64,000 nt of DNA, from IMG/VR virus record IMGVR_UViG_3300031992_000042, positions 32,001-96,000 of that record; one strand, written 5' to 3'. The notes below the pieces were generated by a model. It was not told where the DNA came from and did not search any database. It saw only the letters and a program-made list of their open reading frames with translations. The DNA is from a virus. Lineage: Duplodnaviria > Caudoviricetes. The translations under genes were made by a program, and so were the position numbers. Of the stretch, positions 10,501 to 63,839 are shown in pieces (position 1 is the stretch's first letter; each line of letters starts with the position of its first letter).

Positions 10501-13500
10501 TTTTAAGAATTTTGGCACCCTGACCAAGAGCAATCATTGCTGGATTAGCTCTTCTTTCAAGCTGGTCTAACCCTTCATTTATCCTATCGTATTCATTTTT
10601 GGAATATTGACCTTCATTATACTGGTTACCAACTTGCTTTCTAAGAGTATTTATCTCTTGTTTTCTTGCGGCTGAAATAACAGATAAAGAATTTTTACTC
10701 TTTAAGCCTTGTTTTATCTGTAATGACTCTAAAGCCAGTCTGCCAGCCGTCTCGTTTTGTGTTGTGTATTCAGCTGCTAAACTTGCTCTAGCATCTTGAG
10801 CATTTGCAATACGTTGGTTAGCGACTTTAATAGCATCTTCGTATTGCTTTTGGTATGCAGAATCAACCAAACCTTTATCAAGACGGTTTTGCATCCACGT
10901 AATACCATTTTGCTGCTTGGATATTCTTTCATCATATTTATTTAGTGTCTCTTTTTGTTTGCTTAAACCAAAACCGTTTAATTCTTTTGTAATATCATCT
11001 TCAAGCTGTTTAGCATCAAGCATTATTCCGTTTGTAAAACTTTTATGCATGTTTTCAGTAACTTTATCTCTTGCTTGTGCTATCTGAGACATCCAAGCCG
11101 AACGTTGATCTTCTAAATCTTTTGTTCCTGTAAAAGCTGCATCAGATGCAAGTTCTTCTTCAAGAGCGTTTAAGGGTTGTAAATTTTCAAAAGTACGATA
11201 TTGTAAATAATTATATTGACGTTCTGCCAATGTCTTTTCATCATTTAATTTATTCTCTTTTCCTCTTTGCTCTCTCCAAAGTTCGTCCCCATAGGTTCTT
11301 GTGTCTGATAATATCTGGTTAAACCTATTTCCTACTTCTAAAGCATGTTCATATTTACTTAAATCTGCAAGAACTTTTTCTCTTTGTTCTGTTTGCTCTG
11401 CTTTTTTAGGCGTTTGCGGTCCCCATATCGCGTCAGCACTTTCAGACTGGTTTGTAGACGTCCCGCCTTGAATAGGCATACTTGCAGAACCCGAAGCTTT
11501 TGGATTTTCAACATAAACCAAATTGCCAGTATTTTTATCTTCATAAACAATATTGCCTTTTTCATCTCTGATGATATTATTGTTAGCAACAATTGCAGTT
11601 TCTGGTTTTGCAGGTTCTTTCGGTTGTTCTGGTTCTTTAAATGCCTCAGCCTGTTTGCGAAGCTCAACAACTTTTGATACAAGTGTTTGTCCTACAGCAT
11701 CTGTTGCATTTACAAAATTAGTTCTAAAGTCATCGCCATATGTACGAACAAGATCGCTTTCAAGCATACCGAATTGATCTATGGCGTTTCTTGCAGTTCT
11801 AATACCATATCTGGCTTCTTGTGCTTTAGCCCACTGCTCTTTAGTGTCATAGGCTTTATCGCCTAACATGAATTTACCAGTAGTTGGATCTCTATAATCA
11901 TCTGCAGCTAACGTCAATTCAGCAGCAGCAGCATTTATTAAGCCTTGAATATATTGACCTTCATCATTTGTAATATAAGCTCTCTCGCCTGTGCCAAATT
12001 GATGATGAAGCATACGCATCGTCTGCATCAGTTTGATGCGTTCAGGACCAGCATCACCATATCCGAGCTGTTTATCCATTGCTTCATATATAGCATCCAT
12101 TTGAGTGGGATCAACATTGCCTGTGCGATAAAGCTGGTTTGCTTGAGCAATAGCCATCATATGGTTTGACATATATCTAGAAGGCAAGTTAATTTCATCG
12201 ATGCCCATATCTCTAAGGGCTCTTAAATTGATATATTCTCCATTGGATGCTTTATATATATCTGGATGACTCGCATCTATATACGTACCTTCACGAGTTT
12301 TTACAGCGTTTTTACGATCTGGGGATACGATCATGTCTTCGTCAAACTTAAACAGATCTGTACGCTTTTCTGAGAATTTAGTATATTCTTTACCTAAACC
12401 TAAAGCAGCCCAAACAGGATCATCTTTTTCTAAAGTATAAGTTTGTGCTTTTTTAGGAGTAGAACCAATATCATATATACCTGCCATTCTCTGAGCCGCA
12501 TATACAAGCGCTTGGTTTTCTGGTCTTGAATAGTCGACCTGCATTATTCTGATACCAGAAGAACCTGTACCCATTGGCATAGTCGCATACAAATTGCGTT
12601 CTGCTTGAAGTCTATTTTGAACAGACCAGCTCTTTAATTGTTCTGGCGTATATACAATATCTTCACCTTTAACATCCGAGTCTTTGTATGCACCCATTCG
12701 TTTTAAAGAAGCTTGTACCGCATCGGCAAGTTCTTTATCGTAAATTGCTTTTACTTGGTCTGCATCGTAGTCCATGCCTTGAAGAATTCGTCTATCTTTT
12801 TCAGAAACATACATTCCTGTAGAAGTTGATATGCCAAATCCTTTATAAATAGGTTCTGCGTCAGCTGCCAAATTCTGCGCATAGTACATATTGCCGTATC
12901 CAGTAGGAGAGCGAACAACCGCTACATTGGCTTGATCTTTTCTGTTAAAGTCAAGCACTTTACCTTGCGGTAAAATGATCATATCTCGAATATCTTGGTC
13001 GGATAATCGAGCGTTTGCTTCTTTGTCTAAATATGAGCGAGCTTTCGCAATAGACGCATCTGGAACAGTCCCATCTTTAGCCAACAATATCGTCGCTAAA
13101 GGGCTTGCTGCAGCGCGAAGGTTTGCAATTTTGTCATCGTTGTCAAAGTTGATATATTTACCAGCAATTAAGTCGTTGTAAAGAGAAGCTCGCATATTAT
13201 CAATTCGTGAACGAGCTTCTGTTGACGCTAATAACTGTGAATTGCCACCGAATAAAGGATTAACCTTTCGACTTAGATAGTCTTCTTTATTGCCGAATAC
13301 ATATTTCAACTGACCTTCTTCGGTATCAAGTTCTTGCATTCGCCTCATTGCCATTTCAATTTGATGTTGTCTTAATTCAGGAGAAAACATCATAAAAGAC
13401 GACATCTGAGTACCTAAGTTATCTGAAGCAACTTGATCTAAGTCATAGTCAGCATGATAACTCATAGGATGACGCTGTAATAATGCGGTGAACCTTCTAC

Positions 13501-18477: not shown

Positions 18478-19636
18478 TTAAGCATTCTTGCCAACAAAGG
18501 CGATAGAATAGGTAGCTTCGTCAGGGCGCTTGGCATCCATAGCAGCCAGCGTGAAGCCGAAGGTATTCGCAGTCTTGTAGGACGCATCGAAACCCGGAGC
18601 CTGCGTAACACGAGCATTGTAAACACGAACCAGAACATAACCGATAATAGAGCTATCTGTGCAGTTTTCGCCAGAACCGTAAACCGGATATTTCATGATC
18701 GCTTCACCACGAGCGGAGCTGCGGTTGTCAATGTTTGCTTCTTGAGCTTCTACAGAATAGAAATAAGAAACAGCAACATCGTTTTCAACGTCGCCTGCAA
18801 AGAAGATAATCTTAGCGACTTCGCCAGATGTATCAACCTTGAACTTTCCTTTAACAGGTGTTTGCGCTGTTTCTTCAAGCCCAGCAATAGAAACAGAACC
18901 TGTAATTGGAATCTTTGCTAAATCAACTTCGTTCGTGCCGTCAACGGTCAGAATTTCAGTAATTGGCATCTGATAATGTTCGTTCGTTTCAAAGTTGGTA
19001 GCATTCGCCATAACAAACAGGTCAGCTTCAAACTTACCTGAAGTAATGGACATCTCAACATTTTGTTCAACTGAGGGCGCTAACCTCAGCCCGCTTATTA
19101 AGCTGCTGCACATTGCTGTGCAGTTCAGACTATCTCTTCACCCTATTAAATAGGGGCTCTTCTTTTCGACCCGCTTGGGCCTACACCTTTCGGTTAGTCG
19201 TTACACATTCAAACAGAAATCCAATGGAGATTATTGGTTTTATTAAGTTTTCCTCTGATACATTTTATAATCGCACTTGCATCTGCCCCGGTTTGACGTT
19301 GAGCTTCTGCTGCAGATTCATATTCAACACCAGTTTCAATAAATAATCATATAACCACCTATTTCTGTTCTTAGCACGGGATTGTCCCAATGGGAGTTTC
19401 CCCGTTTAGAAGAGTAATTTATAGTCCGCCCAAGAGATTGTTTAGGTGGACTGACCGGGTAAATAAGCCACAGGATACAGAGACCAACCAGCGTTAATTT
19501 CTGTATAGTTAACCTGAGGCGTTACGGTCGCATTAGTGAGTTCATCGAAATAGAACACGCGACCATCGCAGCGTTTAAACCACAGCCGCGGCACGTCGGC
19601 AACGTATCCGTTAAACTCTTTAACATAAGTAGCCAT
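18478..19636 (-). CDS. Major tail (tube) protein, 257 aa, spliced: exon 1 19636-19444, exon 2 19058-18478
   Basis: Two ORF halves join in frame after intron removal (...PGQST-F-EMSITS...); highly expressed codon usage; position before the chaperones and TMP. Confidence 0.75.
19059..19443 (-). mobile_element. Group I intron in the tail tube gene, containing a homing endonuclease remnant
   Basis: Minus strand P AAACGGGGAAACTC, Q AATCCCGTGCTAAG, R TGTAACGACTA, S AAGAGATAGTCT; exon ends in U paired with G of the IGS (GTCCACCT / GGGCGGAC); intron ends in G. Confidence 0.85.
19209..19350 (-). pseudogene. Deleted homing endonuclease remnant (MIIY* start fused out of frame to a NUMOD1/IENR1-like tail)
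   Basis: AGGTGG RBS, ATG ATT ATT TAT TGA, overlapping frame IETGVEYESAAEAQRQTGADASAIIKCIRGK...HW. Confidence 0.65.
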
Positions 19637-31775: not shown

Positions 31776-32009
31776 ATGTCAAAGTTTCTCACTATTCTCA
31801 GATCCGTAGTTAATAATACTGCGGAGAACAGCGTTAAGTCAAGTCTGAAAAAGCTTGGCTTCAATGTCACAAACAAAGATGCCATTCGACACGAAATCAA
31901 GCGTCTTGATGCCGAAGCTATCGATCTTATTGGTGATAACGATGCGTACTATGCCAACCATAAAGCCTGTTGGAATCTTACCAGCCTTTTGCTTGGGGAG
32001 GTGAAGTAA
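31776..32009 (+). CDS. Early hypothetical protein
   Basis: AAAGGAG RBS. Confidence 0.55.
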   Translation: MSKFLTILRSVVNNTAENSVKSSLKKLGFNVTNKDAIRHEIKRLDAEAIDLIGDNDAYYANHKACWNLTSLLLGEVK

Positions 32010-49177: not shown

Positions 49178-49263
49178 GTCCAGATGTCCGAGCTTGGTTT
49201 AAGGAGATAGTCCTGAAAACTATTGAGTGTAATGCTCCGCAGGTTCGAATCCTGCTCTGGACG
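49178..49263 (+). tRNA. tRNA-Ser(UGA)
   Basis: GTCCAGA/TCTGGAC acceptor, ATAGT-CCTGAAA-ACTAT anticodon arm, long variable arm, G discriminator; C at position 33 is atypical. Confidence 0.8.
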
Positions 49264-49272
49264 CTTTTATAT

Positions 49273-49314
49273 GCGGATATGATAGAATCGGCAGGTTCAA
49301 CTCCTGCGTCCGTA
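49273..49314 (+). ncRNA. tRNA minihelix-like remnant (acceptor stem and T arm only)
   Basis: GCGGAT...GCAGG-TTCAACT-CCTGC-GTCCGT-A. Confidence 0.45.
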
Positions 49315-49435
49315 CTTAAAGACCCGGACAATTGCATATTGAGTCTTTAGCCTTTACCAAGCTTTCTTTAGGTATGCGACTTTCGTCTGCTGTAGTTAAC
49401 AGCAGTCTATTTTTATATATAGGAGTGGTAAACCT

Positions 49436-49867
49436 ATGCATGATTTATCTAATTACAATATTTATACTTGTAAAGATGGCAGAGTTAGAGCATATAACAA
49501 AATAACTCATGCTGTAACATCCTATCCAAGATTACTAATGGAAATAAAACTTGGACGACCTTTATTAAAAACAGAAGATGTTCATCATATTGATGAAAAT
49601 CCGCAGAATAATAACATTGAAAATCTAGAAGTTGTTGATCATCGCGAGCACGATAGGCAACATGCACGAAAATATTTTGATAAAGAAATGATATGTCCAA
49701 TTTGTGGCAAAACGTTTATTTGGACGGCATATCAACAAGTAAAAAGAGCTGGTAATATGCAAAGAAAAAATAGAATAATACCTAAAATCGGACCATGTTG
49801 TTCTAAATCATGTGCTGGTAAAGCAAGTGCAATGACAATTAAAGAAAATAAAAGAAAGGCTGTTTGA
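49436..49867 (+). CDS. Free-standing HNH homing endonuclease
   Basis: R...E..LGR.L...EDVHHIDENPQNN.IENL.V....EH; C-terminal CPIC...CS..C. Confidence 0.85.
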   Translation: MHDLSNYNIYTCKDGRVRAYNKITHAVTSYPRLLMEIKLGRPLLKTEDVHHIDENPQNNNIENLEVVDHREHDRQHARKYFDKEMICPICGKTFIWTAYQQVKRAGNMQRKNRIIPKIGPCCSKSCAGKASAMTIKENKRKAV

Positions 49868-49881
49868 CAGCCTTTATATAT

Positions 49882-50167
49882 GCTCTCTTGTCGGAATTAG
49901 GCATACGAAGCGGACTTTGAAATGAGCACCAAGATAAGAAATTTCTTGAGTGAATGCTGGCTAATTCGGTGAAACTCTCATTGAGACAACGCCGAGCTAA
50001 ATTCGTAGCGATACGATAAACGTGTAGAGACTATATACCAGCTACCTAAATCGAAAGACATGGTAAAGACATAGTCCAGACTACAACAGAAATGGCTGTG
50101 GCGACACAGAGTAGTAAGAAAATCCGTTGCCCGAAAGGGATTGGGGGTTCGATTCCCCCAGAGAGCA
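49882..50167 (+). tRNA. tRNA-Leu(UAA) interrupted by a group I intron (exons 49882-49917 and 50119-50167)
   Basis: GCTCTCT/AGAGAGC acceptor; spliced anticodon arm GCGGA-CTT|AAAA-TCCGT; long variable arm; GGGGG-TTCGATT-CCCCC T arm. Confidence 0.88.
49918..50118 (+). mobile_element. Group I intron (201 nt) in the tRNA-Leu(UAA) anticodon
   Basis: P AATTCGGTGAAAC, Q AACGCCGAGCTAAA, R GTGTAGAGACTA, S AAGACATAGTCCA; U before the 5' splice site, terminal G. Confidence 0.88.
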
Positions 50168-50327
50168 CGTTCGAGGTTCATACAGCGAAAGCTACCCTCG
50201 CGGACGAAGGTATGAATACTACACGGTCTTAAACCCAACAGGACAAACAGCGGCAGTAGTTGTAGGTTGAAGTCGAGCAATGGGGAACAACCTTCTGGCT
50301 GCTAGGAAAGACTAGCTTCATATATAT

Positions 50328-50404
50328 GCCAGATTAGCTCAGTTGGCATGAGCAGTTGATTTGTAATCATCAGGTCAAGGGTTCAAGTCCCTTATCTGGC
50401 TCCA
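50328..50404 (+). tRNA. tRNA-Thr(UGU)
   Basis: Cloverleaf, loop TT-TGT-AA, encoded CCA. Confidence 0.9.
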
Positions 50405-50642
50405 AGAACGTCTGAGACAGAATTCTAGAACAACTGTCAATAAGAAAACACTCTATGAGATAGACCTTTAAGGATAAAATGCTCCTGCACTCGAGAAAAG
50501 CGAAAATAAAAATTTACGCAGGATTTCGGAAGCTCGTTTTCTTAACGTTCCACATTACATCATTATTAAAAGACAAATTCTCCTACGATGACTTATAGGA
50601 AAGACTATACGGTTGCTGGGTGCTGCTAAACCCAGTGCTTAT

Positions 50643-50716
50643 GCTCCGCAAGCTCAATTGGTCGAGCAGTCGGCTTATATCCGAAAGGATCGTGGGTTCA
50701 AGTCCCCGGCGGAGTA
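50643..50716 (+). tRNA. tRNA-Ile(UAU)
   Basis: GCTCCGC/GCGGAGT acceptor; TCGG-CTTATAT-CCGA anticodon arm. Confidence 0.75.
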
Positions 50717-51000
50717 CTAGGAGAGATGGCAAGTAAATGCAGGACGCTGCATAGTGAAGGACACTACTCGAGAATAGCCCTGTAACTGCGCAGGATAAGA
50801 GAACGCCGTGGGTGTACACAAAAACCAGAATATAATAAAGCACGGTCTGAACAAAAGTTCTTCTGCTCTCCTTATTATCCGTCGCTGTGGGCAATAAAAT
50901 GCAGATATCCTTAACAGGACTCTCTTGCGGGACGGATATTACCGCTGTACTAGTGTACAGTTGGTTCCTGGAGTCGTCTTTATAGACGGCTCCTGTTTAT

Positions 51001-51071
51001 AGCCCTTTAGCGTAATGGTAGCGCAGTGGACTTTGACTCCATATGTGGTAGTCCGATTCTACCAAGGGCTG
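51001..51071 (+). tRNA. tRNA-Gln(UUG)
   Basis: AGCCCTT/AAGGGCT acceptor; GTGGA-CTTTGAC-TCCAT; G discriminator; T loop TCCGATT. Confidence 0.8.
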
Positions 51072-51072
51072 C

Positions 51073-51590
51073 TACATCCTAACCAAATAATCGGGACGTT
51101 ATATATCACTCCTGCGGGTAGTAAATAAGGACGTGGCTACTGATTAAGTACACCTGTTAGTTTCAGGGGCGCAGGTCGCGTATAACGTTTCTAAAAAGCC
51201 CGCCCGGTGGCGTAGGATGACGAGCTAAGCATTCTCATATAAACTGCTTTTAACAGTCTAGCCAACAGGTTCTGAAGTTATTCATCCGAGTGGCTTCCGT
51301 AGAGTATGATGTGGCTGTCGTACATGCGTGATGACCCAATGAAGTTAGTAAGAACAAAACTATGGCTTGCGTTTGTCTGGAGCGCAGCTGAAAATCTATC
51401 CATGATTTGAACTGTCTGTCAACCGCGTCCGAAGTTGCCTTGTTATTTTATGAAACTATAGTTCGCCTTCTAACTGACAACTAGATATAAGTCGAAATAG
51501 CAAATAAAAGTTGATAAGGTTAGGTAGGAGCACTGCCGTGACGCGCCAGTAATGCACCTTTGAGTCGCATATGTGGTCGCACGGCATTTT
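51073..51590 (+). ncRNA. Candidate large structured ncRNA in the tRNA cluster
   Basis: No ORF; long-range pairings CCTAACC/GGTTAGG and ACCTGTT/AACAGGT; 3' hairpin TGCCGTG/CACGGCA. Confidence 0.45.
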
Positions 51591-51637
51591 ATTGTTTATT
51601 AGCTTTTAAAGCATATTTATATAAAATTTGAAAAAGG

Positions 51638-52166
51638 ATGGTATGTATGAGAAATGGATATAAAATGCTCTTTATGCCAGAACATCATCGTGCAGATATA
51701 ACAGGATGTGTTTATGAACATGTTATTGTCGCAGAACAAAAAATAGGACGAGAATTAAAAGATGAAGAAGTAGTCCATCATATTGATGAAAATAGAAGTA
51801 ATAACTCACCAGAAAATTTAATGGTTTTTGCAAATACAGCAGAACATAGTGCTTATCATGCCACACATGAGGCATATCAGATTGATAATATTTGGTATGC
51901 ATCAAGAAAAAGAAAGCCAAAAGAATGTAAAATTTGTGGCAAAATGTTTATTCCTAAATATAAAAATATAAATTATTGTTCGCATAAATGTGCACAAAAA
52001 GCTAATAGAAAATTACCAGATATCGACCAAGTTGTAAATGTACTTCGAAAAAAACAACGGCAATATGAGTGCTGTCAGCAGAATTTTTAATGTTACTCCT
52101 AATGCAATTGTAAGAATACTTAAAAGAAATAATTTGCCATATCATAGTAATGATTATGCAAATTAA
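51638..52166 (+). CDS. HNH homing endonuclease; C-terminal HTH displaced by an apparent +1 frameshift in an A7 run (52048-52054)
   Basis: VYEH..VAEQKIGR.L...EVVHHIDENRSNN.PENL; alternative frame NGNMSAVSRIFNVTPNAIVRILKR. Confidence 0.75.
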
Positions 52167-52174
52167 ATATATAT

Positions 52175-52248
52175 GGCTCGTTAGCTTAGCCCGGTAAAGC
52201 AGCCGCCTGTTAAGCGGAAGAGCGTAGGATCGAAGCCTACACGAGCCG
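52175..52248 (+). tRNA. tRNA-Asn(GUU)
   Basis: GGCTCGT/ACGAGCC acceptor; CCGC-CTGTTAA-GCGG; atypical T loop ATCGAAG. Confidence 0.8.
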
Positions 52249-52251
52249 CTT

Positions 52252-52744: not shown

Positions 52745-53353
52745 ATGATCAAAGTTACTCTTATTAGCACCAATGGACGCAAGACCGACATGTTTGCAGA
52801 ACATCAGACTCCGCGTGAAGTATTTGAATACTTCGATGTTGATTATTCCGTCGCGACAAACACTATTGATGGTGTCAGGATTGGTATCGGTGACATGGAC
52901 AAGTCTCTGAAAGAGCTTGGCGCAGGAGCTGAATGCCGTATCTCGTCAATTGTTAAGACCGATAATGCTGCGCACATTGATCTGACTGGCGCTGCGGCTG
53001 TTCTGGTTTCCGATGTGAAACTGGAAGACTGGAAGCGTGTCGAAAAGTACGCACCGGAAGCTCTGAAAATCGTCGATGAAGAAGGCGATGTTGTCTTCAA
53101 GGTTATGACTTGTTGCTGCACTGGTTCTGTTAATGAAAACGGAGTGTGTTTCGGCACATACACCAACGAAGGCGGTCTTGCAACTGTGACAGTTCTGATG
53201 GACGATGAAGTAGAAGATCGTCTTCAGGCAATTAAAGATGTTGCTGGGCAGGCTCTGCTGGATCTGAATGATATTGAAAAGGATATTCCTCAGATTCTGA
53301 AGGACATTGAAGAGAAAGAAGCGGAGATTGAAAAGCTGATTGTAGCTAAGTAA
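52745..53353 (+). CDS. Ubiquitin-like (beta-grasp) domain fused to a C-terminal domain
   Basis: N-terminal ~75 aa have a beta-grasp pattern (IKVTL...TPREVF...IDG...DKSL.ELG....I..IVK.DNA); first gene of the E2-JAB-E1 cluster. Confidence 0.65.
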   Translation: MIKVTLISTNGRKTDMFAEHQTPREVFEYFDVDYSVATNTIDGVRIGIGDMDKSLKELGAGAECRISSIVKTDNAAHIDLTGAAAVLVSDVKLEDWKRVEKYAPEALKIVDEEGDVVFKVMTCCCTGSVNENGVCFGTYTNEGGLATVTVLMDDEVEDRLQAIKDVAGQALLDLNDIEKDIPQILKDIEEKEAEIEKLIVAK

Positions 53354-53366
53354 TCTCCGATACATA

Positions 53367-53398
53367 GGGGCTGAGGTTAAACTCAGCCCCTTTTTTTA
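53367..53398 (+). terminator. Intrinsic terminator between the Ubl and E2 genes
   Basis: GGGGCTGAG / CTCAGCCCC stem followed by T8. Confidence 0.85.
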
Positions 53399-53427
53399 AA
53401 AATTATAAGGAGATTAAAAGTACAAAA

Positions 53428-54846
53428 ATGTTTAGAGAACATATTGAAAAACCAATTGATCCTATTCCGCAGGTTTACGCTGACAAAATTCAGCGCCTGT
53501 ATAACGAACCTGATTATAGTTTAACCTCTCTTGGTATTGCACTTCTTAAATCACGTATTGAAAATTATGACGGTATTACTGGTGTTTATTATAGCTACGA
53601 CAATAAAGTAAATGCATTTAAGGACTTTGTTAATCGAGTAAATTCTGTCGATACTCATCCTTTGTATTGCTATTATATATATAGTACAGATAACGATGTT
53701 TCAGATATTATAAATGAAAATCTGTCTGAATTTAAAGAAAGAAAAAATATTTCTGCATTCATTAAAGAAAAGTCCGACAACGAATGCACTGTTTTATATC
53801 ATGAAACAAAGAATGCAGTAGGTATCTTTGTTAATTCAAGAGATTTTCGACTGTATCATCTTCTGATGTCATTCGTTTCTTTGTATTATCCTTCTTTGTT
53901 TGTAGAAAAGAAGATGACAGAAGAAGACTATACAATTGTTAAATCATTATCTAATAAAGAAAAAGATAAGTTTTATACAAGTGTTCAGAACGTATTAAAG
54001 CCTTTCACGATTGAATTTAGAAGGCTTCAACTTAGTTCTTTAATGAAAGATATTCATGATGTAAAGATTAACAATGCTTTGAACAATGTAAATAATCTGA
54101 GAAGTAGTGCAAATTCTATCGAAGAACAGCTTGGACGTGTTATCGCACAGTTAAAGGATGCTATTGTACTTTATGAAGGTATGAAAGCTACTGAAAATTA
54201 TGATGCTCCTGAAGAAGAATTGGTAGAATATCTTTCAAATAATGCCGATATTCATGGTCTTGATATTAGAGATCATCATTTATATTTCTCTGTTACAACA
54301 TTGCTGAACAATTTTAATCAGCAAGCATGGGATACGTTTAGCAATCGTGGGAATATTTATGACGGCGAATATAGCGCAAATTTGCTTGACGTATTCAAGA
54401 AAAGAGAAAACAGAAAGATCATTCTTGATGCTATCTTCAGTGAAGACCCGAAACTGTTTGTGCGAATGGCTGGAAATTATATTATCAATCTTGATCAGTG
54501 TAGAGTATCTACCAGTTCTGGATATGATTATGAAAATGTCGATCCTATATTTAAAGATTATATGCCGAATCCGCATTTGAAAATCTTCGAATGTCTAGGC
54601 GGATATAGAGACCGAATTATGCCCGCGTTAAGAGATCGTAATTATATTTCAGCTATTGAAATTTGTATTGCTTCAGCAGGATCTATTAATCTTGATGAAG
54701 TTACCCAAACATTCAGACCATTCTTAGGATGGATTCTGTCTAGTACAAATAAGATTATGCAAACTCAGGATGGAACTGCCATGACACCTGAAGAGGCACT
54801 TGTATGGTTAATTGATAATAAGGAGAAAGATAATGCGACCGATTAA
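53428..54846 (+). CDS. Prokaryotic E2-like conjugating enzyme (C-terminal) with a coiled coil
   Basis: PNPHL....CLG catalytic pattern, then S.N..E; operon context. Confidence 0.65.
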   Translation: MFREHIEKPIDPIPQVYADKIQRLYNEPDYSLTSLGIALLKSRIENYDGITGVYYSYDNKVNAFKDFVNRVNSVDTHPLYCYYIYSTDNDVSDIINENLSEFKERKNISAFIKEKSDNECTVLYHETKNAVGIFVNSRDFRLYHLLMSFVSLYYPSLFVEKKMTEEDYTIVKSLSNKEKDKFYTSVQNVLKPFTIEFRRLQLSSLMKDIHDVKINNALNNVNNLRSSANSIEEQLGRVIAQLKDAIVLYEGMKATENYDAPEEELVEYLSNNADIHGLDIRDHHLYFSVTTLLNNFNQQAWDTFSNRGNIYDGEYSANLLDVFKKRENRKIILDAIFSEDPKLFVRMAGNYIINLDQCRVSTSSGYDYENVDPIFKDYMPNPHLKIFECLGGYRDRIMPALRDRNYISAIEICIASAGSINLDEVTQTFRPFLGWILSSTNKIMQTQDGTAMTPEEALVWLIDNKEKDNATD

Positions 54847-55657
54847 TCTGTCGAATGAGGCAATAGAAAAATTATACGGTGAATTTCTTGAAAAATTCAA
54901 GAATGAAATAGCAAATTACGGTTTTAACGGCGGTTCTTCGATGACAATTAAAACTAATTTCGAAGAAGTTGCTAAAGAAAAGGTTATTATTAGATATACA
55001 CAGGAAGCGTTCTTGCGTATGCAAGCGTTGGTAGATTTCTTTGATTCTGAAGTTGCATGGTATGGGCTTTGTGAACGGCTCGGAGAAAAAGAATTTAGAG
55101 TGTATGACGTTAAGGTTTGTAAGCAAGAAGTTACAGGAGCTAAAGTAGATACAAGCGATGAAGACACTTTAGAATTCTTCTGCAGTCTAACTGATGATGA
55201 AGCTGAACATTTGCATTTTCAGGCTCATAGTCATGTGAAAATGTCTACTGGAGCATCAGGTACGGATATTCAGAATCAGCAGGATGTTGTAAAGAATATG
55301 GGTAAGACTGGTTATTATATTTTCCAGATTTGGAACAAAAATAACGATATTAATACTTATCTGTATGATTTAGATAATAATGTTTTCTATGATCGAAAAG
55401 ACGTAATGATCGTGATCGAAGATAGCCTTGGAGATCTGGATGACTTTATTGCATCTATTGCTGATTGTGTTGTAGAAAAGAAAACATATCCATATCAGTA
55501 TAGTGGAAGTGGCTATGCTGGAAATTACTATAATAAATCCGTAGAAACGAAAACTCCAAAAAAAACAAAAGAAAACGAAGAAGATGACTACGACACGGTC
55601 TATCTAGGAGAATATTATGATGGTATTCATGGATATTATGGAAGGAGCGATTGGTAA
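54833..55657 (+). CDS. JAB/JAMM metallopeptidase (deubiquitinase-like)
   Basis: EVAW...HSHVKMSTGASGTD matches E...HxH-x7-S-x2-D; AAGGAG RBS before MRPIN. Confidence 0.85.
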   Translation: MRPINLSNEAIEKLYGEFLEKFKNEIANYGFNGGSSMTIKTNFEEVAKEKVIIRYTQEAFLRMQALVDFFDSEVAWYGLCERLGEKEFRVYDVKVCKQEVTGAKVDTSDEDTLEFFCSLTDDEAEHLHFQAHSHVKMSTGASGTDIQNQQDVVKNMGKTGYYIFQIWNKNNDINTYLYDLDNNVFYDRKDVMIVIEDSLGDLDDFIASIADCVVEKKTYPYQYSGSGYAGNYYNKSVETKTPKKTKENEEDDYDTVYLGEYYDGIHGYYGRSDW

Positions 55658-56329
55658 TTGAATTTATCAAAAAGCTTTGAGTTTTTTAATCCTGAAGTGT
55701 GTATAGATACTATTCATATTATCGGCTGCGGTTCAGTTGGTTCAACCGTAGCCGAACTTCTTGCTAGGTTTGGTTTAAAAAATGTTAAACTTTACGATTT
55801 CGACTTTGTAGAAGAGCATAATTTGGCTAACCAAATGTTTACAACAGAGAACTTGTATAAACCAAAGGTTGAAGGCGTATATGACCGATGGGTTTCTATC
55901 AATCCTGAAGCCGCTAAAACAATTAAATTATATGGTGACGGTTGGACAGGACAAAAATTAAACGGTTATGTATTTCTGTGTGTAGATAACATTGAACTTC
56001 GCAAGAAGATCGTAGAAGAAAATAAGTATAATCTGAACATTAAAGCAATGTTTGACTTTAGGACGAGTTTAGATACAGCGCAGCACTATGCAGCAGACTG
56101 GTCTAAGCCTAAAAGTATTGAAGCGTTGCTTGATACAATGGATTTTACTCATGCAGAAGCTGAGAAGAATACTCCAATGAGTGCTTGTAAAGTTTCTTTG
56201 TGTGTAATGCCAACTGTTTGGTCTGTGGCAATGGCTGGTGTAGTAAATTTTGTAAATTTCGTTAAAGAAGGCAAATTAGAACAGGCTGTTATTACAAGAC
56301 CATTTGCATTTGATACTCTTATTTGTTAA
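55658..56329 (+). CDS. E1/ThiF-family activating enzyme
   Basis: IIGCGSVGS, DFDFVEEHNLANQ, KPKVE, CVDN..R, candidate catalytic Cys in SAC. Confidence 0.9.
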   Translation: MNLSKSFEFFNPEVCIDTIHIIGCGSVGSTVAELLARFGLKNVKLYDFDFVEEHNLANQMFTTENLYKPKVEGVYDRWVSINPEAAKTIKLYGDGWTGQKLNGYVFLCVDNIELRKKIVEENKYNLNIKAMFDFRTSLDTAQHYAADWSKPKSIEALLDTMDFTHAEAEKNTPMSACKVSLCVMPTVWSVAMAGVVNFVNFVKEGKLEQAVITRPFAFDTLIC

Positions 56330-56330
56330 T

Positions 56331-56850
56331 AAAGTCCATCAACTTCGGTTGGACTGTTTATGTTATAAATAGTAACGCTTTGCCCGGTAGGAGACGACGG
56401 GCCAAATGCCCAGACGGCTGGAGGTGCTGCACTGCTTACTGCTGAAAGAGGCAAATCAAATTAGAAAACCTATAAAATAACTAATTTACACCTATTCAAT
56501 TGAAGAAATTCACTTGAATCAACCATAAAGTCGCCTGGGAAAAGAAGACTGAATCTTAATTTAGTTTATAAACAAAAGAGTATTAAAAATATCATATAAA
56601 GACCTTCAACTTATGTTGGACAATTTATGTTATAAGTTGTAACTCTTTGCCGGGGAATAGTGAAACGACGCGGGCATGTCTGAAGAACATTCCACTCCCG
56701 AAATCATCGTAGAACAAAATGAACTGCTACTATACAAACTGAAAATTAAAATATTCAGTATTAACAGAACCATTAAGATAAATAGACCAATACGACGGAC
56801 GTCAAGAAACTCCCTGGGATCTCCTAATTTAGTTTATATGATACAAGAAA
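56331..56850 (+). ncRNA. Two tandem ~270-nt units with conserved ends upstream of the RT (putative msr-msd-like RNAs)
   Basis: Both units share TCAACTT..GTTGGAC..TTTATGTTATAA.T.GTAAC.CTTTGCC.GG, ACGACG, CCTGGGA and TAATTTAGTTTATA; middles are divergent. Confidence 0.6.
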
Positions 56851-56861
56851 AGGAAGTAAAA

Positions 56862-58004
56862 ATGATTTATATTACAACAATGCAGCATAGGAAGCCAAGG
56901 CAATTATCTTGGGAAGATGTCATTATGGAAAAAGAAATTTTTAATGATTTTACTAATGACAAGTCTTCATCTACTGCAACAATTACAAGAAAATACGAAG
57001 AAGTAAAAGAAGAAGTTCTTAACAGAATTAACGTAGATGCTATGATTAGATGGCTAAAACAGTTTAATGATTCGAATAAAGAACTGTTTGAAGCAGATCG
57101 TAAGTCTCTGTATTCGTCGTTTAAGATTCCGAAAACGACTGGTGGATTCAGGCAAATTGATGCTCCTTGTGAGAAATTGCAAGACGAATTACAACGATTG
57201 GTACATTTCATTGGGGATGATTGCGGTGTGCTGTATCATACTGCTGCGTTCGCCTATGTAAAAGGCAGAAGTATTGTTGACTGCATAAGGAAACATCAGA
57301 AGAATGAATCTATGTGGTTTCTGAAAACAGACTTTAGTGGGTTTTTTCCAAATACTACTTTGAATTTTACAATGAAAATGTTGTCGATGGTATTTCCACT
57401 GTCTGAAGTATGTAAAAGAGAAGATGGATATAAAGAATTAGAAAAAGCAATCAGCCTTGGATTCTTGAACGGTGGACTTCCTCAAGGAACTGTGTTGTCT
57501 CCGATGCTTACAAACATTTTTATGATTCCGATTGATCATAAATTGTTTAATGAATTGGCGGATCGACACATTGTTTATACACGATACGCTGATGATATTC
57601 ATATTTCAGCTCAGGAAAAATTTCCTTGGCAAGAAATTGTTAAATTGATTGAAGATACGCTAAAAGAATTTAATGCGCCTTGGGTAATTAAGAAAGAAAA
57701 GACACATTTTGGTAGTAGAAAAGGTCGCAACTGGTCATTAGGATTAATGCTGAACAGTGATAATAATATAACTGTTGGATGGAAGAAGAAACAATATTTC
57801 AAGGCTGCGCTATGTTCGTTTATTCTTGATACAAAGAATGGCAAACATTGGGATATTGGAGATGTTCAACATCTTCGTGGTCAATTGTCCTATTATACAA
57901 TGGTTGAAAAAGATTATTTTAATAGCATTATAAAACAGCAAAATAAGAAATGGAATGTAAATGTAAACGATATGTTTAAAGCATATCTCAATGGAACTGT
58001 TTGA
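56862..58004 (+). CDS. Retron-like reverse transcriptase (380 aa)
   Basis: F.IPK..GG.R.I.AP, H..AFAY..GRS, KTDF..FF, LPQG..LSP, YTRYADD, KEKT; AAGGAAG RBS before MIYIT. Confidence 0.85.
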   Translation: MIYITTMQHRKPRQLSWEDVIMEKEIFNDFTNDKSSSTATITRKYEEVKEEVLNRINVDAMIRWLKQFNDSNKELFEADRKSLYSSFKIPKTTGGFRQIDAPCEKLQDELQRLVHFIGDDCGVLYHTAAFAYVKGRSIVDCIRKHQKNESMWFLKTDFSGFFPNTTLNFTMKMLSMVFPLSEVCKREDGYKELEKAISLGFLNGGLPQGTVLSPMLTNIFMIPIDHKLFNELADRHIVYTRYADDIHISAQEKFPWQEIVKLIEDTLKEFNAPWVIKKEKTHFGSRKGRNWSLGLMLNSDNNITVGWKKKQYFKAALCSFILDTKNGKHWDIGDVQHLRGQLSYYTMVEKDYFNSIIKQQNKKWNVNVNDMFKAYLNGTV

Positions 58005-58035
58005 CAAAGAAAAGTCGAAAGACTTATTTAATGTT

Positions 58036-58140
58036 ATTAAATAAAACGAGAAAAGACTACATGTAAATAATAAAACTTGATCGTTCCTGAAGGCGGAACT
58101 AAAGTACCGCCTTCAGGAAGATCAAGTCTTCTTATTTAAT
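58036..58140 (+). ncRNA. Long-hairpin element downstream of the RT, closed by a 9-bp inverted repeat
   Basis: ATTAAATAA/TTATTTAAT flanks enclose a ~21-bp stem at 58075-58127. Confidence 0.5.
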
Positions 58141-58215
58141 CAATACTTTGTATTCAGTTTGTTAAATAGTTAGGTACCTAACTTTGAAGACTTTCTAAGT
58201 TTGGTATAAGGGGAG

Positions 58216-58710
58216 AGAGTTAAGAAAGGAAGGAAGTGCTCCTGTTTTTCTCTCTCTTTAACATGTCTCGATGTTACGCATACGTGCAGCGGTTAGTAGA
58301 GACTTCTGCCCGAAAGGGCAGAATTATATGAGGCTGACAAGTTCACGGCTTGAAAGTCTCTTGCAGTTTGCCAGAACTCATCTGGTGTAGAATATGCTTT
58401 AAAGCGCTTACCGCGTTTAAAGACACCCGTGAGTGTCTAACGCGGTATTTTGCTCTGCTGCGTAAAAGCTTAATGACAGGCTCGCCACCTGTCGGAGTAA
58501 CAACAAAAGACAGTTATACTGTGTCAGATCTTTCCTGATATCTAGATAGTTCGACTAATCATCGGACTACACCTACACATTTTTCCTTTCTGTATGTTCT
58601 GGATAGGTTCTGCTGACAACATAGGATGAACTTTCTCCCCGAGGTTTATCCTATTATGCGGTACTTGCGTAAAGGTTAAATGCAACCTCGCCTGTTGCAG
58701 CCGCCAATTT
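58216..58710 (+). ncRNA. Candidate large structured RNA or 5' leader of RNAP copy 2
   Basis: Starts just after the 58168 promoter; closing stem AGAAAGGA/TCCTTTCT; several GC-rich hairpins. Confidence 0.45.
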
Positions 58711-58992
58711 AATAAAATGAAAGCACCATATAAAGACCTGCATCATATGACGATACTGGTGCTGCAGCAAGTTCACTCGTATTCTTTAAACAAACAGGAT
58801 GTAAGAATGCCCCATGTTGATTTAGAGACCACCAGATACGAGACTTATTGCTGTTGGAGCTGTTTATTATTACGGGTTGGGTTCGTATACCGACATAAAC
58901 AGCTCCTATTTTTTATTACAGAATTAGTAAATCTATCCTTTTGGATTAAATATACGTATCTTAAAAACAACAAAATGAAAGGGGGCCGCGAG

Positions 58993-61830
58993 ATGTCTGT
59001 AAAGACATACTTGCAAGAACAGATTCGTCTTGTATCTTTGTTAAGTAAAGACTTATACACAGATGAAGAAATGATTCTGTACAAAAAAATAATCGATCAG
59101 AAAAATATCCTAGATCTGATGGATGAGAAAGGAGCAGAAAAAGAAGAACGCAAAGCTGTAATCAACGAGAAAAATAAACTAAAAACACAGCTTGATAAGC
59201 TTATTCTTTCTCATGCAGATACGCCAAGAACTGTGAACTTAAAGTCTGTCATCTATTATCCCAAAGATGCAGACTATCCTTTTCCCGAAGGAGTAACTTA
59301 TCGAAGTTTAAAAACAAATAAAAAAATAGCTGAGTTTTGTTGCGAATTATCCCGCGCAATGGGACTTGAAAATTTAGACTGTACTCTTGATTTAATTGTA
59401 ATCAAATGGAAAAACATAGAGATTTTAAGACAACTAGTAGTTAATGGATTTTATATGCCAATTCTGAATAAAGATGGCACAGTAGAAAATAGACACTATC
59501 ATTTTTATACAGCCAGCAGCGGTCAGTTAAGGCGTGATAAGTTCATGGCAATATCTGACAGCACATGGAATAAAATTCATAATAAACTTGAATGCGGTAT
59601 TACTTGGGATGTTATCAACGCAAAAGGCGGGATAAACTCAAATAAGTTAAGTGCTTATGATGCGCTTCAAAATTCTGCAACTGAAGTATGGGAAGATTTT
59701 AATATAGATTCTGTAATTGTAGTCGATGATTATGAAGGCGAAGTTACTGATAGAATGATTTATATTAAACCTGATTATACGTTTGAAAAAGGAATACGTA
59801 CAGTAAAGATAACACATACAGACGGATGTGGAATGATGCTCCCTGAAATATCTGATTCGAATTTTATGATCAGAATACCGTATGGAAAAGGCTTATTAAT
59901 AGTATTTGACTTTATAAGATTCTGCAAAGAACATAATGTAGAACCTATAGTAACTGATATATATGGCAAACAATGGCATCTAATAAACGATAATATTAAA
60001 ATAATTCTGTTTAAAAGTATGTTTAAACTTTGGAAATATTTTAATAACTGGCAAGAGTATAAAGATGAATTCAAGAAGAACGAATGCCATTGCGGAAAAA
60101 CTAACTATGAAGAAGAATTCTTAGCAAATAAAACATTAAATTATCAAATGATAGATACGTTAACAGATTTTACGGATGAAGAAATTAAACAGTTTACAGA
60201 AAAAGAACATGAACGTATCGTTAAGCTCACAAAAGATAAAGATGCAATGCTTGACGTGTTGAAAGCAAATGAAAAAAGTGAGCAACCATATAAGGTTGCT
60301 CTTAAAATTTATCCAGAACTTTTACGTGAAGCTTATGCTCGACAATCTTTAATTGATATTCGTAAGCGAATGTTATTGGATGCTAAATCTGGAAAAATAA
60401 GGAGTTTAAATAAACGTTTATTTGCTTGTCCAGATCTATATGGCGTTTGTGAATGGCTGTTTTTACATGATGAACATCCTAAAGGATTACTAAAAAACGG
60501 AGAAGTTGCATGTAAAATATTTAGACGGCATGAAAAAGTAGACGTGCTTCGAAGTCCACATTTAGCGATGGAACATGGCGTACGAAATATCGTACAGAAT
60601 CAAAAAGTCTATGATTGGTTCTGTACAAATGGATTATATAGCTCGTTGCATGATTTATTAAGCAGATTGTTGCAATGCGACTGGGACGGGGATCAGCTGA
60701 ATGTTGTAGCCGATCCTTTATTTGTCGAAATTGCAGAAAGAAACATCAAGAAATATGACGTTGTACCGTTGTTTTACGAGATGGACAAGGCTCCGGCTGA
60801 AATAATAGACAGTAATACTATGTTCAACGCTTTAAAAAGAGCTCATGACTATTCTGCTGGAGAAATAACAAGTATAGGCGAGATATCTAATATGTTGACT
60901 CGTCTTTGGAATAAAGAAAATCCAGATAGAGATGTTGCTAATCTGCTTACAATGTTCAACAATTTAGTGATTGACGCAGCTAAGAACGGAAAAATAAACC
61001 ATTATAAGAATTATCCAAAGATAGCGAAAAGAATTGGCAAAGCTACCGGAGGTAAAAATGGTCGCATGCCTTACTGGTTTCAATTCTCAAAAAATGGCAG
61101 AAAAGATACGCCAGAAAATAGAAACCGTAAATATGCAGAACCCAATAATTCAACGATGAACCGAATATGTAAAGCATTTGACGATATTGGATATATAAAT
61201 CTAAACTATGCTGGCATTTCTCAGTTCAATTATCAAATGCTTATGTCTGCTCCATGCTATGATTCAAAACCTGAAATTTATCAGTTATTTTGCGAGCTTG
61301 ATAACTCGAATAAATCAAGTATTATTGCTTCGCAAGAAAATACTTATGCTTCAGAGAAGCAACTGATAAATAATTATAGTATAGTAGCGGAAGACATTAC
61401 AAACGAGATCATTCAAAGATATGGTTCATTGGAATATGCCTATCCATATATAGTAAAGTATCTTTTTGCAGGAGAAGGCATGGACAAATCTGCGCATAAA
61501 CAAATGTTCTGGCGTGTGTTTGGAGAAATTGCATTAAATAATCTTCGCAAGAATTTATCAGAATGTGATACGTGTAAAGATTGTTTTATAAAAATACCAG
61601 CATGGGTAGAAGACCATAACTGTATAAAAAATACAAAAGGTTTTTATGAATGCATAGACTGTCATGTTTTATGTGAACGAACTAATCCGAAGCAATGTCG
61701 TTGTACAGAATGCCAATCTGTGTATAAAACATTACAAAGACGGATAAAGCAAAGAGCCAAAAGAGAATTAAAGAAAGTAATTGAAGAACAACGTATTACG
61801 TCCTTGGGATCGTTCTTGAACAAGACGTAA
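58993..61830 (+). CDS. Single-chain two-barrel RNA polymerase (YonO-like), copy 2, with C-terminal Zn ribbons
   Basis: TASSGQLR, HTDGCGM...FMIR...KG, VLRSPHL, catalytic CDWDGD, IDAAK; C-terminal CxxC motifs. Confidence 0.9.
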   Translation: MSVKTYLQEQIRLVSLLSKDLYTDEEMILYKKIIDQKNILDLMDEKGAEKEERKAVINEKNKLKTQLDKLILSHADTPRTVNLKSVIYYPKDADYPFPEGVTYRSLKTNKKIAEFCCELSRAMGLENLDCTLDLIVIKWKNIEILRQLVVNGFYMPILNKDGTVENRHYHFYTASSGQLRRDKFMAISDSTWNKIHNKLECGITWDVINAKGGINSNKLSAYDALQNSATEVWEDFNIDSVIVVDDYEGEVTDRMIYIKPDYTFEKGIRTVKITHTDGCGMMLPEISDSNFMIRIPYGKGLLIVFDFIRFCKEHNVEPIVTDIYGKQWHLINDNIKIILFKSMFKLWKYFNNWQEYKDEFKKNECHCGKTNYEEEFLANKTLNYQMIDTLTDFTDEEIKQFTEKEHERIVKLTKDKDAMLDVLKANEKSEQPYKVALKIYPELLREAYARQSLIDIRKRMLLDAKSGKIRSLNKRLFACPDLYGVCEWLFLHDEHPKGLLKNGEVACKIFRRHEKVDVLRSPHLAMEHGVRNIVQNQKVYDWFCTNGLYSSLHDLLSRLLQCDWDGDQLNVVADPLFVEIAERNIKKYDVVPLFYEMDKAPAEIIDSNTMFNALKRAHDYSAGEITSIGEISNMLTRLWNKENPDRDVANLLTMFNNLVIDAAKNGKINHYKNYPKIAKRIGKATGGKNGRMPYWFQFSKNGRKDTPENRNRKYAEPNNSTMNRICKAFDDIGYINLNYAGISQFNYQMLMSAPCYDSKPEIYQLFCELDNSNKSSIIASQENTYASEKQLINNYSIVAEDITNEIIQRYGSLEYAYPYIVKYLFAGEGMDKSAHKQMFWRVFGEIALNNLRKNLSECDTCKDCFIKIPAWVEDHNCIKNTKGFYECIDCHVLCERTNPKQCRCTECQSVYKTLQRRIKQRAKRELKKVIEEQRITSLGSFLNKT

Positions 61831-63020: not shown

Positions 63021-63178
63021 GCTATACCACCAGTTTAAGCAGTGACTTTACGCATTGACTTGAAACTGGTGTTAGTACTTTCTGAGCATCTTCAGAAAGT
63101 TTAATTTCACTAGGGTACCAAATGTGAAGTTAATAAAAATAAAAAGATGCAAATATGTACAAAAAAGGTGGTAAACGT

Positions 63179-63562
63179 ATGCCAAACTATGCAAAGGTAG
63201 CGCTTACGGGACGATTAACTCGTGAGCCAAGGAACGGCGAATACAATGGATCGACTGTGATTTCATTTAGTGTTGCTGTTTACACAACCAAAAAAGTTGA
63301 CGACAAATATGTTGCTGACTTTTACAATGTAAGTTACTGGGGCAAAGCAGCCGAAGCTGTTTATCCGAAGCTTGCACAAGGAACGCTTGTTCAGGTATAT
63401 GGCGATCTGTATCAGGAAGATTATACCGATAAACAAGGCAATAAGAAACAAGGTATGTCTGTTCGTGCCAGTGAAGTCATTAAGCTGAAAGATCCTGAAG
63501 AAAATAAGGAAACTAAGCCAAAGGCTAAACCGAAAGCAGTCGAAGAAGACGACCCATTCTAA
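63179..63562 (+). CDS. ssb: Single-stranded DNA-binding protein, copy 2
   Basis: LTGRLTREP...FSVAV...F.NV..WGK.AE...G..V.V.G; tip EDDPF. Confidence 0.9.
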   Translation: MPNYAKVALTGRLTREPRNGEYNGSTVISFSVAVYTTKKVDDKYVADFYNVSYWGKAAEAVYPKLAQGTLVQVYGDLYQEDYTDKQGNKKQGMSVRASEVIKLKDPEENKETKPKAKPKAVEEDDPF

Positions 63563-63839
63563 TCAACTAAATAATTTAAGTCATGAACTGCAAACATGTA
63601 TAAATAACTTTATATAATGTTGCTCTGTTAATGTTATTAATAGAATCATGAAAATAAAAGTGAACGGACATCCCGGCTCTCGCTGCCCAACGGCAGCGAG
63701 CCGGATGTCCTACTTTTACAGCTCTCAACGCTAGTGAGCTGTAAAAGTTAAAACACTATGTGTTTAGATGACTTATCAAAAATAAAAAGCAATAAATAAA
63801 AGTACAGAAAAGAAATAAAAAGTGAGAGGTGTAATCACA

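Follow-up and report, generated by a model that had tools for sequence, protein, structure and literature searches.

The stretch analysed here, called the window, comprises 64,000 nucleotides (nt; positions 32,001 to 96,000) of the IMG/VR virus record IMGVR_UViG_3300031992_000042 (Duplodnaviria; Caudoviricetes). The virus is a large, uncultured phage of the gut or rumen, and the window carries the gene of a retron-type reverse transcriptase (RT) together with retron-like non-coding RNA (ncRNA) units, four in this genome, one of which lies 5.5 kb from the others. An operon with ubiquitin-like (Ubl), E2, JAB and E1 genes precedes the RT. A preliminary description of the region had recorded two tandem units before the RT and a third element behind it; the register of the closing stem, the fourth unit and the occurrence of a single upstream unit in most relatives were absent from it. 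In window coordinates the elements are:

52745-56329, plus strand: Ubl-E2-JAB-E1 operon, coding for proteins of 202 amino acids (aa), 472 aa, 281 aa (JAB-like) and 223 aa (ThiF/E1-like)
56323-56575, plus strand: unit A, retron-like ncRNA, identified by sequence, repeats and a covariance-model match
56590-56843, plus strand: unit B, retron-like ncRNA, directly 5' of the RT ribosome-binding site
56862-58004, plus strand: retron-type RT of 380 aa, with a Pfam RVT_1 match (2e-20) and the YADD motif
57997-58169, plus strand: unit C, retron-like ncRNA 3' of the RT, identified by its minimum free energy (MFE) fold and a covariance-model match at hairpin 2
63577-63775, plus strand: unit D, orphan retron-like ncRNA between the SSB and primase genes

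The reverse transcriptase

By sequence and fold, the protein belongs to the retron RT clade. Its best PADLOC profile is RT_II-A (7e-50), followed by I-A and III-A, and the NCBIfam model of retron St85 matches it with 177 bits. The ten best sequence matches in the PDB are retron RTs (Ec83, Ec78/Eco7, the St85 family, Ec67, Kva2 and Ec86). The AlphaFold model (pLDDT 85) likewise has only retron RTs among its top ten Foldseek matches in the PDB, with TM-scores of 0.62-0.76 on monomeric RTs of about 310 aa. These matches and an alignment to the RT of retron Ec83 confirm the earlier account of a retron-like RT with YADD, CIRKH and SLG. Across the RT family, YADD and all the polymerase motifs are invariant, and an N-terminal extension of about 75 aa is conserved. 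The position of the retron NAxxH motif reads D[CNAV]xxKH, in which only the H is invariant, and that of VTG reads NWxLG, in which the G is invariant. In these two retron motifs it is the H and the G that are conserved most strongly (PMC7736814), and both are kept in the window RT.

A search of viral contigs with the single protein found nothing; a profile search then succeeded and located more than 552 RT loci in IMG/VR. The homologues fall into 4,359 protein clusters at E <= 1e-3, with membership of the lineage shown for part of them only, and into 430 clusters at 50% identity and E <= 1e-30. The DNA of the region has no match among GenBank phages. Some homologues (P0132, P0134, P0141, P0143, P0146 and others) have lengths of 450-500 aa and align with the query in two separate parts, which implies that about 80 aa have been inserted into these RT genes or that the genes are interrupted by an intervening element.

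Two other classes of RT were considered and rejected. A group II intron would be accompanied by its RNA, but no Rfam group II intron match was found, and the group II RT profile scores 70 bits against 177 bits for the retron profile. The RT of a diversity-generating retroelement (DGR) comes only at rank 33 in the fold search, and the middles of the units have no second copy in the genome.

Units A and B

Units A and B follow the ThiF/E1 gene (55658-56329) head-to-tail and are themselves followed by the RT. A repeat search of the window found a 59-nt 5' block at 56329-56387 and again at 56596-56654 (83% identity, spacing 267) and a 17-nt 3' block at 56554-56570 and 56822-56838 (94% identity), while the middles of the two units do not align. 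The tandem arrangement with divergent middles is thus as first described, and the motifs ACGACG and CCTGGGA are present in both units, also as claimed. Both have the layout of a retron msr-msd region: a word a1 at the 5' end, a candidate branching G, two small 5' hairpins, a putative template part, a conserved TTTAG and the complementary word a2 at the 3' end.

56323-56333, plus strand: unit A a1, overlapping the E1 stop codon
56334, plus strand: unit A candidate branching G, directly 3' of a1
about 56335-56355, plus strand: unit A hairpin 1
56353-56373, plus strand: unit A hairpin 2, loop GTT
about 56391-56545, plus strand: unit A variable middle
56534-56540, plus strand: unit A CCTGGGA
56560-56564, plus strand: unit A TTTAG, directly 5' of a2
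56565-56575, plus strand: unit A a2, pairing with a1 at 10 of 11 positions (one mismatch)
56590-56600, plus strand: unit B a1
56601, plus strand: unit B G, directly 3' of a1
56620-56640, plus strand: unit B hairpin 2
about 56658-56805, plus strand: unit B variable middle
about 56813-56819, plus strand: unit B CCTGGGA
56830-56832, plus strand: unit B TAG, directly 5' of a2
56833-56843, plus strand: unit B a2, 11 of 11 perfect pairs with a1

The RT start codon is found 18 nt beyond the end of unit B, as in an msr-msd-ret operon. The ends of the units had been proposed to pair through TGTTTAT and ATAAACA; the conserved closing stem has another register, formed by 56323-56333 with 56565-56575 in unit A and by 56590-56600 with 56833-56843 in unit B. 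In the orthologous distal units of two related loci, L002 and L022, the a1/a2 stems are 12 bp long. A covariance model of the 5' domain, R1, matches unit B in the window with 77.5 bits (E 1e-16) and unit A with 69.5 bits (E 1e-14).

The tandem pair is confined to the window and its closest relatives (loci L001, L002/L003, L022, L096 and L097, RT at least 79% identical); the other related loci have one unit before the RT and usually one after it. Short open reading frames (ORFs) on either strand within the units were rejected as genes because the 5' domains show indels that are not multiples of a triplet. A helix between the GCCCGG block and the CCWGG block was dropped, since no covariation was seen by eye.

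Units C and D

The third element of the preliminary description, a hairpin with TTAATGTTATTAA followed by a long nested stem, is confirmed as unit C. The fourth unit, D, lies between the SSB gene (63155-63562, phrog_44) and a zinc-finger primase-like gene.

57997-58008, plus strand: unit C a1, overlapping the RT stop codon
58009, plus strand: unit C G, directly 3' of a1
58013-58024, plus strand: unit C hairpin 1
58025-58043, plus strand: unit C hairpin 2, with TTAATGTTATTAA at 58028-58040
58064-58138, plus strand: unit C long msd-like hairpin
58158-58169, plus strand: unit C a2, preceded by CAG; 12 pairs with a1, 2 of them G-U
63577-63584, plus strand: unit D a1, forming an 8-bp stem with a2
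63585, plus strand: unit D G, directly 3' of a1
63628-63640, plus strand: unit D hairpin 2 with TTAATGTTATTAA
about 63666-63711, plus strand: unit D near-perfect hairpin of about 20 bp, with a second hairpin after it
63768-63775, plus strand: unit D a2, preceded by TTTAG

The unconstrained MFE fold of unit C consists of the closing stem, two small hairpins and the long hairpin (z = -10), and that of unit D also closes a1 with a2 around two small hairpins and a long one (z = -11). The repeat search resolved the long hairpin of unit C into a nested stem, with arms 58084-58100 and 58103-58119 inside 58064-58082 and 58120-58138. Model R1 matches unit C at the hairpin (58024-58048) and unit D over its full length (63593-63665, 33.8 bits, E 1e-5), the next best match in the window after B and A.

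A unit directly behind the RT stop codon is widespread. R1 matches hairpin 2 there in ten relatives, and anchored a1/a2 stems, often of 10-12 bp, follow the RT in about 50 of 85 loci, the distant clade included; anchored counts are given for the whole post-RT units because their MAFFT alignment was too poor for formal pair counts. The stem of the unit C long hairpin (CCTGAAGGCGG...) is common to related loci, unlike the middles of A, B and D. D-like units were found at the same SSB-primase junction in two complete or near-complete records of related phages; one is complete, having terminal repeats. A genome-wide search of the window's own record of 105,695 bp found no further copies.

Covariation of the closing stem and hairpins

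The DNA around about 100 RT loci was read for flanking units; RT identity ranges from 35 to 95% in about 85 related phage contigs. At one locus after another, the gap 5' of the RT opens with a word a1 of 7-12 nt whose reverse complement, a2, stands 10-40 nt 5' of the RT start codon. Between loci the words vary and the complementarity is kept, as in the pairs CACGTAAA and TTTACGTG, TGCGTAAT and ATTACGCA, CATGCAAT and ATTGCATG, GTCTGTATT and AATACAGAC, and CCTGTAAC and GTTACAGG. In the relatives a G stands directly after a1, and (T)TAG or CAG directly before a2. All four units of the window have the G, and so do the loci in which a1 was recovered by an unanchored search; that search gave a1 with its following G in most loci.

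For 81 distinct a1/a2 pairs with 40 different a1 7-mers, pairing is 99.8% with the word's own partner and 69% with shuffled partners. Of 74 loci, 84% have an anchored stem of 8 or more pairs where it is expected, compared with 11% in shifted controls and 19% on the opposite strand. Hairpin 2, with the loop GTN, is 83.8% paired in an alignment of 50 units, and its covariation is 0.71 compared with 0.26 after shuffling; none of 500 shuffles was as high, and slid controls reached at most 0.33. Counting hairpins 1 and 2 jointly within the close clade gives 95.5% pairing, with changes on both sides in 10 of 13 pairs. Since U-G pairs are frequent, the structure is in the RNA of the plus strand.

The preliminary description had called for a covariance analysis across homologous loci and would have given up its reading if the homologous RTs lacked such units. 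The closing stem and hairpins covary, and the homologous RTs do carry units, so that the objection falls away.

Hypervariable middles of the units

The middles of units A and B change much faster than their surroundings. Between the window and its relative L096 the DNA of the RT is 91% identical and that of E1 92%. Identity is 90-91% in the 5' domains of A and B, with a2 conserved, and falls to 50-51% in the middles, close to the lowest value that a global alignment gives. The fourfold-degenerate sites of RT and E1 are 75-78% identical in the same comparison. For the middles of A, B and D, a search of about 100 related loci gave no match at E <= 0.01, and no sharing of cassettes was found there.

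The composition of the middles is kept. A G-rich, T-poor stretch, often with GACGACG, follows the 5' domain and is succeeded by an A/C-rich, G/T-poor, template-like stretch. CCWGG is conserved about 25-45 nt before a2, after the A/C-rich segment, in the window (middles 56391-56545 and 56658-56805) and in related loci. A comparison of the middles with the phage's own genome gave no complementarity beyond chance (longest match 14 nt, E 0.05), which argues against a role as guide or primer on the phage's own DNA.

A turnover of template sequence faster than that of synonymous sites suggests a role in conflict. Because the middles are hypervariable and the Ubl-E2-JAB-E1 neighbourhood is invariable, a conflict function, either counter-defence or competition between phages, seems likelier than a housekeeping one.

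Genomic neighbourhood

The E1-like protein of the operon matches ThiF (6e-18) and the NCBIfam 6A-MBL model cap2_3, and the operon has PADLOC E1-E2 and JAB matches. In tblastn searches E1 was found upstream of the RT in every locus with enough flanking sequence, and JAB in most, so the linkage to E1/JAB, for which the preliminary description had proposed a test, is conserved. Even at 35-37% RT identity the linkage is kept, and a human faecal phage record is among the loci that show it. In the distant RT clade an extra gene of 250-300 aa is located between E1 and the upstream ncRNA (L051 1327-2136, L078 1262-2167, L029 1376-2128); in the three ORFs tested, no RNase H or other Pfam domain was found.

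Downstream, positions 58993-61830 code for a 945-aa protein that is 35% identical to YonO, the single-subunit RNA polymerase of SPbeta (E 1e-127), and matches phrog_8308. Exonuclease and SSB genes lie beyond it. Between unit C and the YonO-like gene is a conserved, structured, GC-richer non-coding region of about 830 nt (58167-58992). It opens with a perfect 16-nt palindrome, AGTTAGGTACCTAACT, of which the relatives' variant, AGTTCGGTACCGAACT, stays symmetric. Hairpins inside it covary between relatives, an example being GCCGCATT...AATGCGGC in a relative and ACCGCGTT...AACGCGGT in the window. The region has no Rfam match and may be an undescribed large phage RNA; the equivalent gap of relatives contains tRNA genes (Ile-TAT, Thr, Ser). 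Inside it, positions 58720-58749 resemble the a1-G start of unit B (CCATATAAAGACC...) without a matching a2 downstream, and may be a unit relic or a chance match.

For the units themselves, Rfam searches at gathering and permissive thresholds in the window and one relative gave only chance long-hairpin matches to microRNA models. Group I introns score above the Rfam gathering threshold at 49907-50099 (plus strand), in the region of a tRNA cluster, and at 19106-19453 (minus strand). The cluster (49178-52249) comprises Ser-TGA, Thr-TGT, Gln-TTG and Asn-GTT, a fifth member at 50643-50716 which Rfam matches and ARAGORN does not call, and an HNH endonuclease gene (51638-52090). A single ORF of 4,682 aa occupies 1541-15589 on the minus strand.

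Proposed mechanism and alternatives

The locus is probably a phage-borne variant of a retron, in which the RT recognizes the 5' domain shared by the units, primes on the G and copies the 3' part, giving one multicopy single-stranded DNA (msDNA) per unit. The class of the RT, the architecture of the RNAs with its covariation, the number and positions of the units, the linkage and the hypervariability are the observations from which this proposal is built. The ends of a unit would pair through a1 and a2 into the closing stem, and the conserved 5' domain with hairpins 1 and 2 would be the recognition module of the RT, equivalent to msr. The invariant G directly 3' of a1 could then provide the 2'-OH primer. 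Reverse transcription would begin at the conserved UUUAG just 5' of a2 and run back through the unit-specific 3' part, the putative msd equivalent, so that each unit would yield a different branched msDNA. Units C and D are expected to give classical msDNAs with a long hairpin, and A and B longer, T/G-rich single-stranded DNAs from A/C-rich templates, hypervariable between near-identical phages. As to the role of these products, it may be counter-defence, such as the decoy function suggested in the preliminary description, exclusion of other phages with the Ubl proteins as effector, or DNA metabolism. In the fullest form of the proposal, one RT of a widespread clade of large gut and rumen phages makes a repertoire of msDNAs, part of it hypervariable from strain to strain, which is coupled to the phage's own Ubl conjugation cascade and acts in conflict between phage and host or between phages; we put this forward tentatively, as a possibility that is open to considerable doubt.

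Several points weigh against the retron proposal. The 177 bits of the RT are below the curated NCBIfam cut-off for St85 of 235 bits, so the RT forms a divergent clade of its own, and in the alignment to the Ec83 RT it has CIRKH in place of NAxxH (region X) and SLG in place of VTG (region Y). Units A and B are without the long msd hairpin of classical retrons, their middles being A/C-rich and weakly structured, and the predicted fold of unit B is no stabler than those of shuffled sequences (z = 0.13). The a1/a2 sets with 99.8% and 95.5% pairing were partly chosen for pairing and their percentages are inflated; for this reason the anchored stems (84% against 11%) and the unanchored controls are the fairer measure. 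No known type of retron effector adjoins the RT, whose neighbours are the Ubl, E2, JAB and E1 genes and the YonO-like RNA polymerase, and ThiF is not mentioned in the text of the retron classification paper (PMC7736814). The linkage between RT and Ubl operon may be mere synteny of the lineage: all loci come from one syntenic phage lineage, and linkage alone is therefore no proof of functional coupling. Finally, priming at the G, cDNA synthesis, action in trans on unit D and the biological role are what we infer from the arrangement.

The same anatomy could serve another purpose. In a phage-carried defence or exclusion system the RT-msDNA complex would be a sensor or antitoxin and the Ubl-E2-JAB-E1 proteins the effector arm. 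Characterized retrons are indeed defence systems of three parts, the effector being adjacent (PMC7736814); at every locus, as far as the most distant ones, E1/JAB genes immediately precede the RT, and E1 matches defence models of PADLOC (E1-E2) besides cap2_3. We regard this as unlikely, given that the block has the look of a syntenic core component of the lineage's early/replication region and not of a variable accessory island, and that several ncRNAs, one of them 5.5 kb off, are unlike toxin-antitoxin retrons. That very location, in a module for replication and transcription with the YonO-like polymerase, the exonuclease and SSB, and with unit D between SSB and primase, could instead mean that the msDNAs or the RT-RNA complexes serve the DNA metabolism of the phage itself, in replication priming, as recombination substrates or in packaging. 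The RT is present in every related locus recovered, though it was through the RT that all of these loci were identified. One would expect conservation of a replication element, however, and the middles are hypervariable and show only chance complementarity to the phage's own genome, which makes a part in DNA metabolism quite improbable.

The units could also be structured RNAs that the RT binds and does not copy, or copies only on a trigger, with a regulatory or scaffold function; type VI retrons, which at rest produce little msDNA, would be comparable. The missing msd hairpin of A and B and the ordinary predicted stability of B fit such RNAs, and retrons without abundant msDNA are reported in a preprint (10.1101/2025.10.22.683967). 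The invariance of YADD and of all the polymerase motifs across the RT family speaks against it, as do the conserved G and UUUAG at the a1/a2 junction, which are what a priming site needs, and on balance it seems improbable. A further reading takes the repeated blocks for transcription punctuation (terminators, promoters or RNA processing sites) of the YonO-type polymerases, unrelated to the RT; a version of it, duplicated terminator-promoter junctions, was named in the preliminary description. The hairpin-2 motif does recur at three intergenic junctions (56357, 56624, 58028 and 63628), and a U-rich run follows hairpin 1 of unit A. What makes punctuation highly improbable is that the a1/a2 stems covary over 170-400 nt, so that both ends must be on one RNA, that the conserved blocks lack matches to sigma-70-type promoters and intrinsic terminators, that U-G pairs are frequent, and that the 105.7-kb genome has units nowhere but near the RT and at a single additional conserved site. 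The retron variant with several templates accordingly remains the preferred explanation.

Significance

Known retrons are defence systems of bacteria and consist of a single RT, a single ncRNA and a single effector. In the present case a retron-type RT gene is conserved throughout a very large lineage of uncultured phages, accompanied by several template-like RNAs per genome and a constant Ubl/E1/JAB neighbour, and the arrangement is common to hundreds of related phages. In full-text searches of the literature, neither a phage retron with more than one ncRNA nor a retron with linkage to E1/JAB turned up; the searches gave only a generic remark that certain viral RTs group with those of retrons (PMC13681634). 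Should cDNA be made, viruses would be using retron chemistry for their own ends, and one RT would serve several natural templates in trans, which is of interest for multiplexed genome editing with retrons; the origin and diversification of retrons would also become open to experiment. The hypervariable template regions would point to an arms race at the level of sequence that has no prior description, and a multi-template viral retron coupled to a Ubl cascade, if true, has no described counterpart.

Comparison with known systems

The closest relatives in sequence and RT fold are the retrons of types I-A and II-A (Ec83, Ec78/Eco7, St85/Sen2, and also Ec86). The features in common are an ncRNA directly 5' of the RT, the a1/a2 inverted repeats, the G after a1, the small 5' hairpins and, in units C and D, the long msd-like hairpin. 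Unlike these retrons, the phage locus combines its RT with three to four ncRNA units, among them one that follows the gene and one at a distance of 5.5 kb, and it is a conserved block of a lineage of phages of 100-160 kb. Its RT has CIRKH and SLG for NAxxH and VTG and the family-specific N-terminal extension of about 75 aa, the upstream units have hypervariable A/C-rich template regions, and the Ubl-E2-JAB-E1 operon takes the place of a known retron effector. Retron effector systems are classified into 13 known types (PMC7736814). The four units described here depart from their plan of one ncRNA per RT with an adjacent effector.

The retrons Ec67 and Ec73 are prophage-borne, accessory defence cassettes of P2/P4-like elements with a single ncRNA. 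They share with the present locus the carriage on a phage genome, and the Ec67/Eco2 RT is among the PDB matches, but the present module includes several ncRNAs and keeps its synteny throughout a very large clade of phages. The ThiF/E1-like and JAB-like genes of the neighbouring operon resemble the E1/E2/JAB systems of the Bil type and of the Cap2/Cap3 type in cyclic-oligonucleotide-based antiphage signalling systems (CBASS). An RT and an ncRNA are not part of the described Bil and CBASS systems, whereas the present cassette is phage-encoded and its E1 has only 223 aa.

A dedicated ncRNA template and hypervariable sequence near the RT are also reminiscent of DGRs and of the defence-associated RTs DRT2 and DRT9. 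The similarity of the RT to those of DGRs and DRTs is much weaker than to retron RTs, and no pair of template repeat and variable repeat was noticed, no search having been aimed at one. In a DGR the variability is found in a target gene, whereas here it lies between phage strains, in the template itself.

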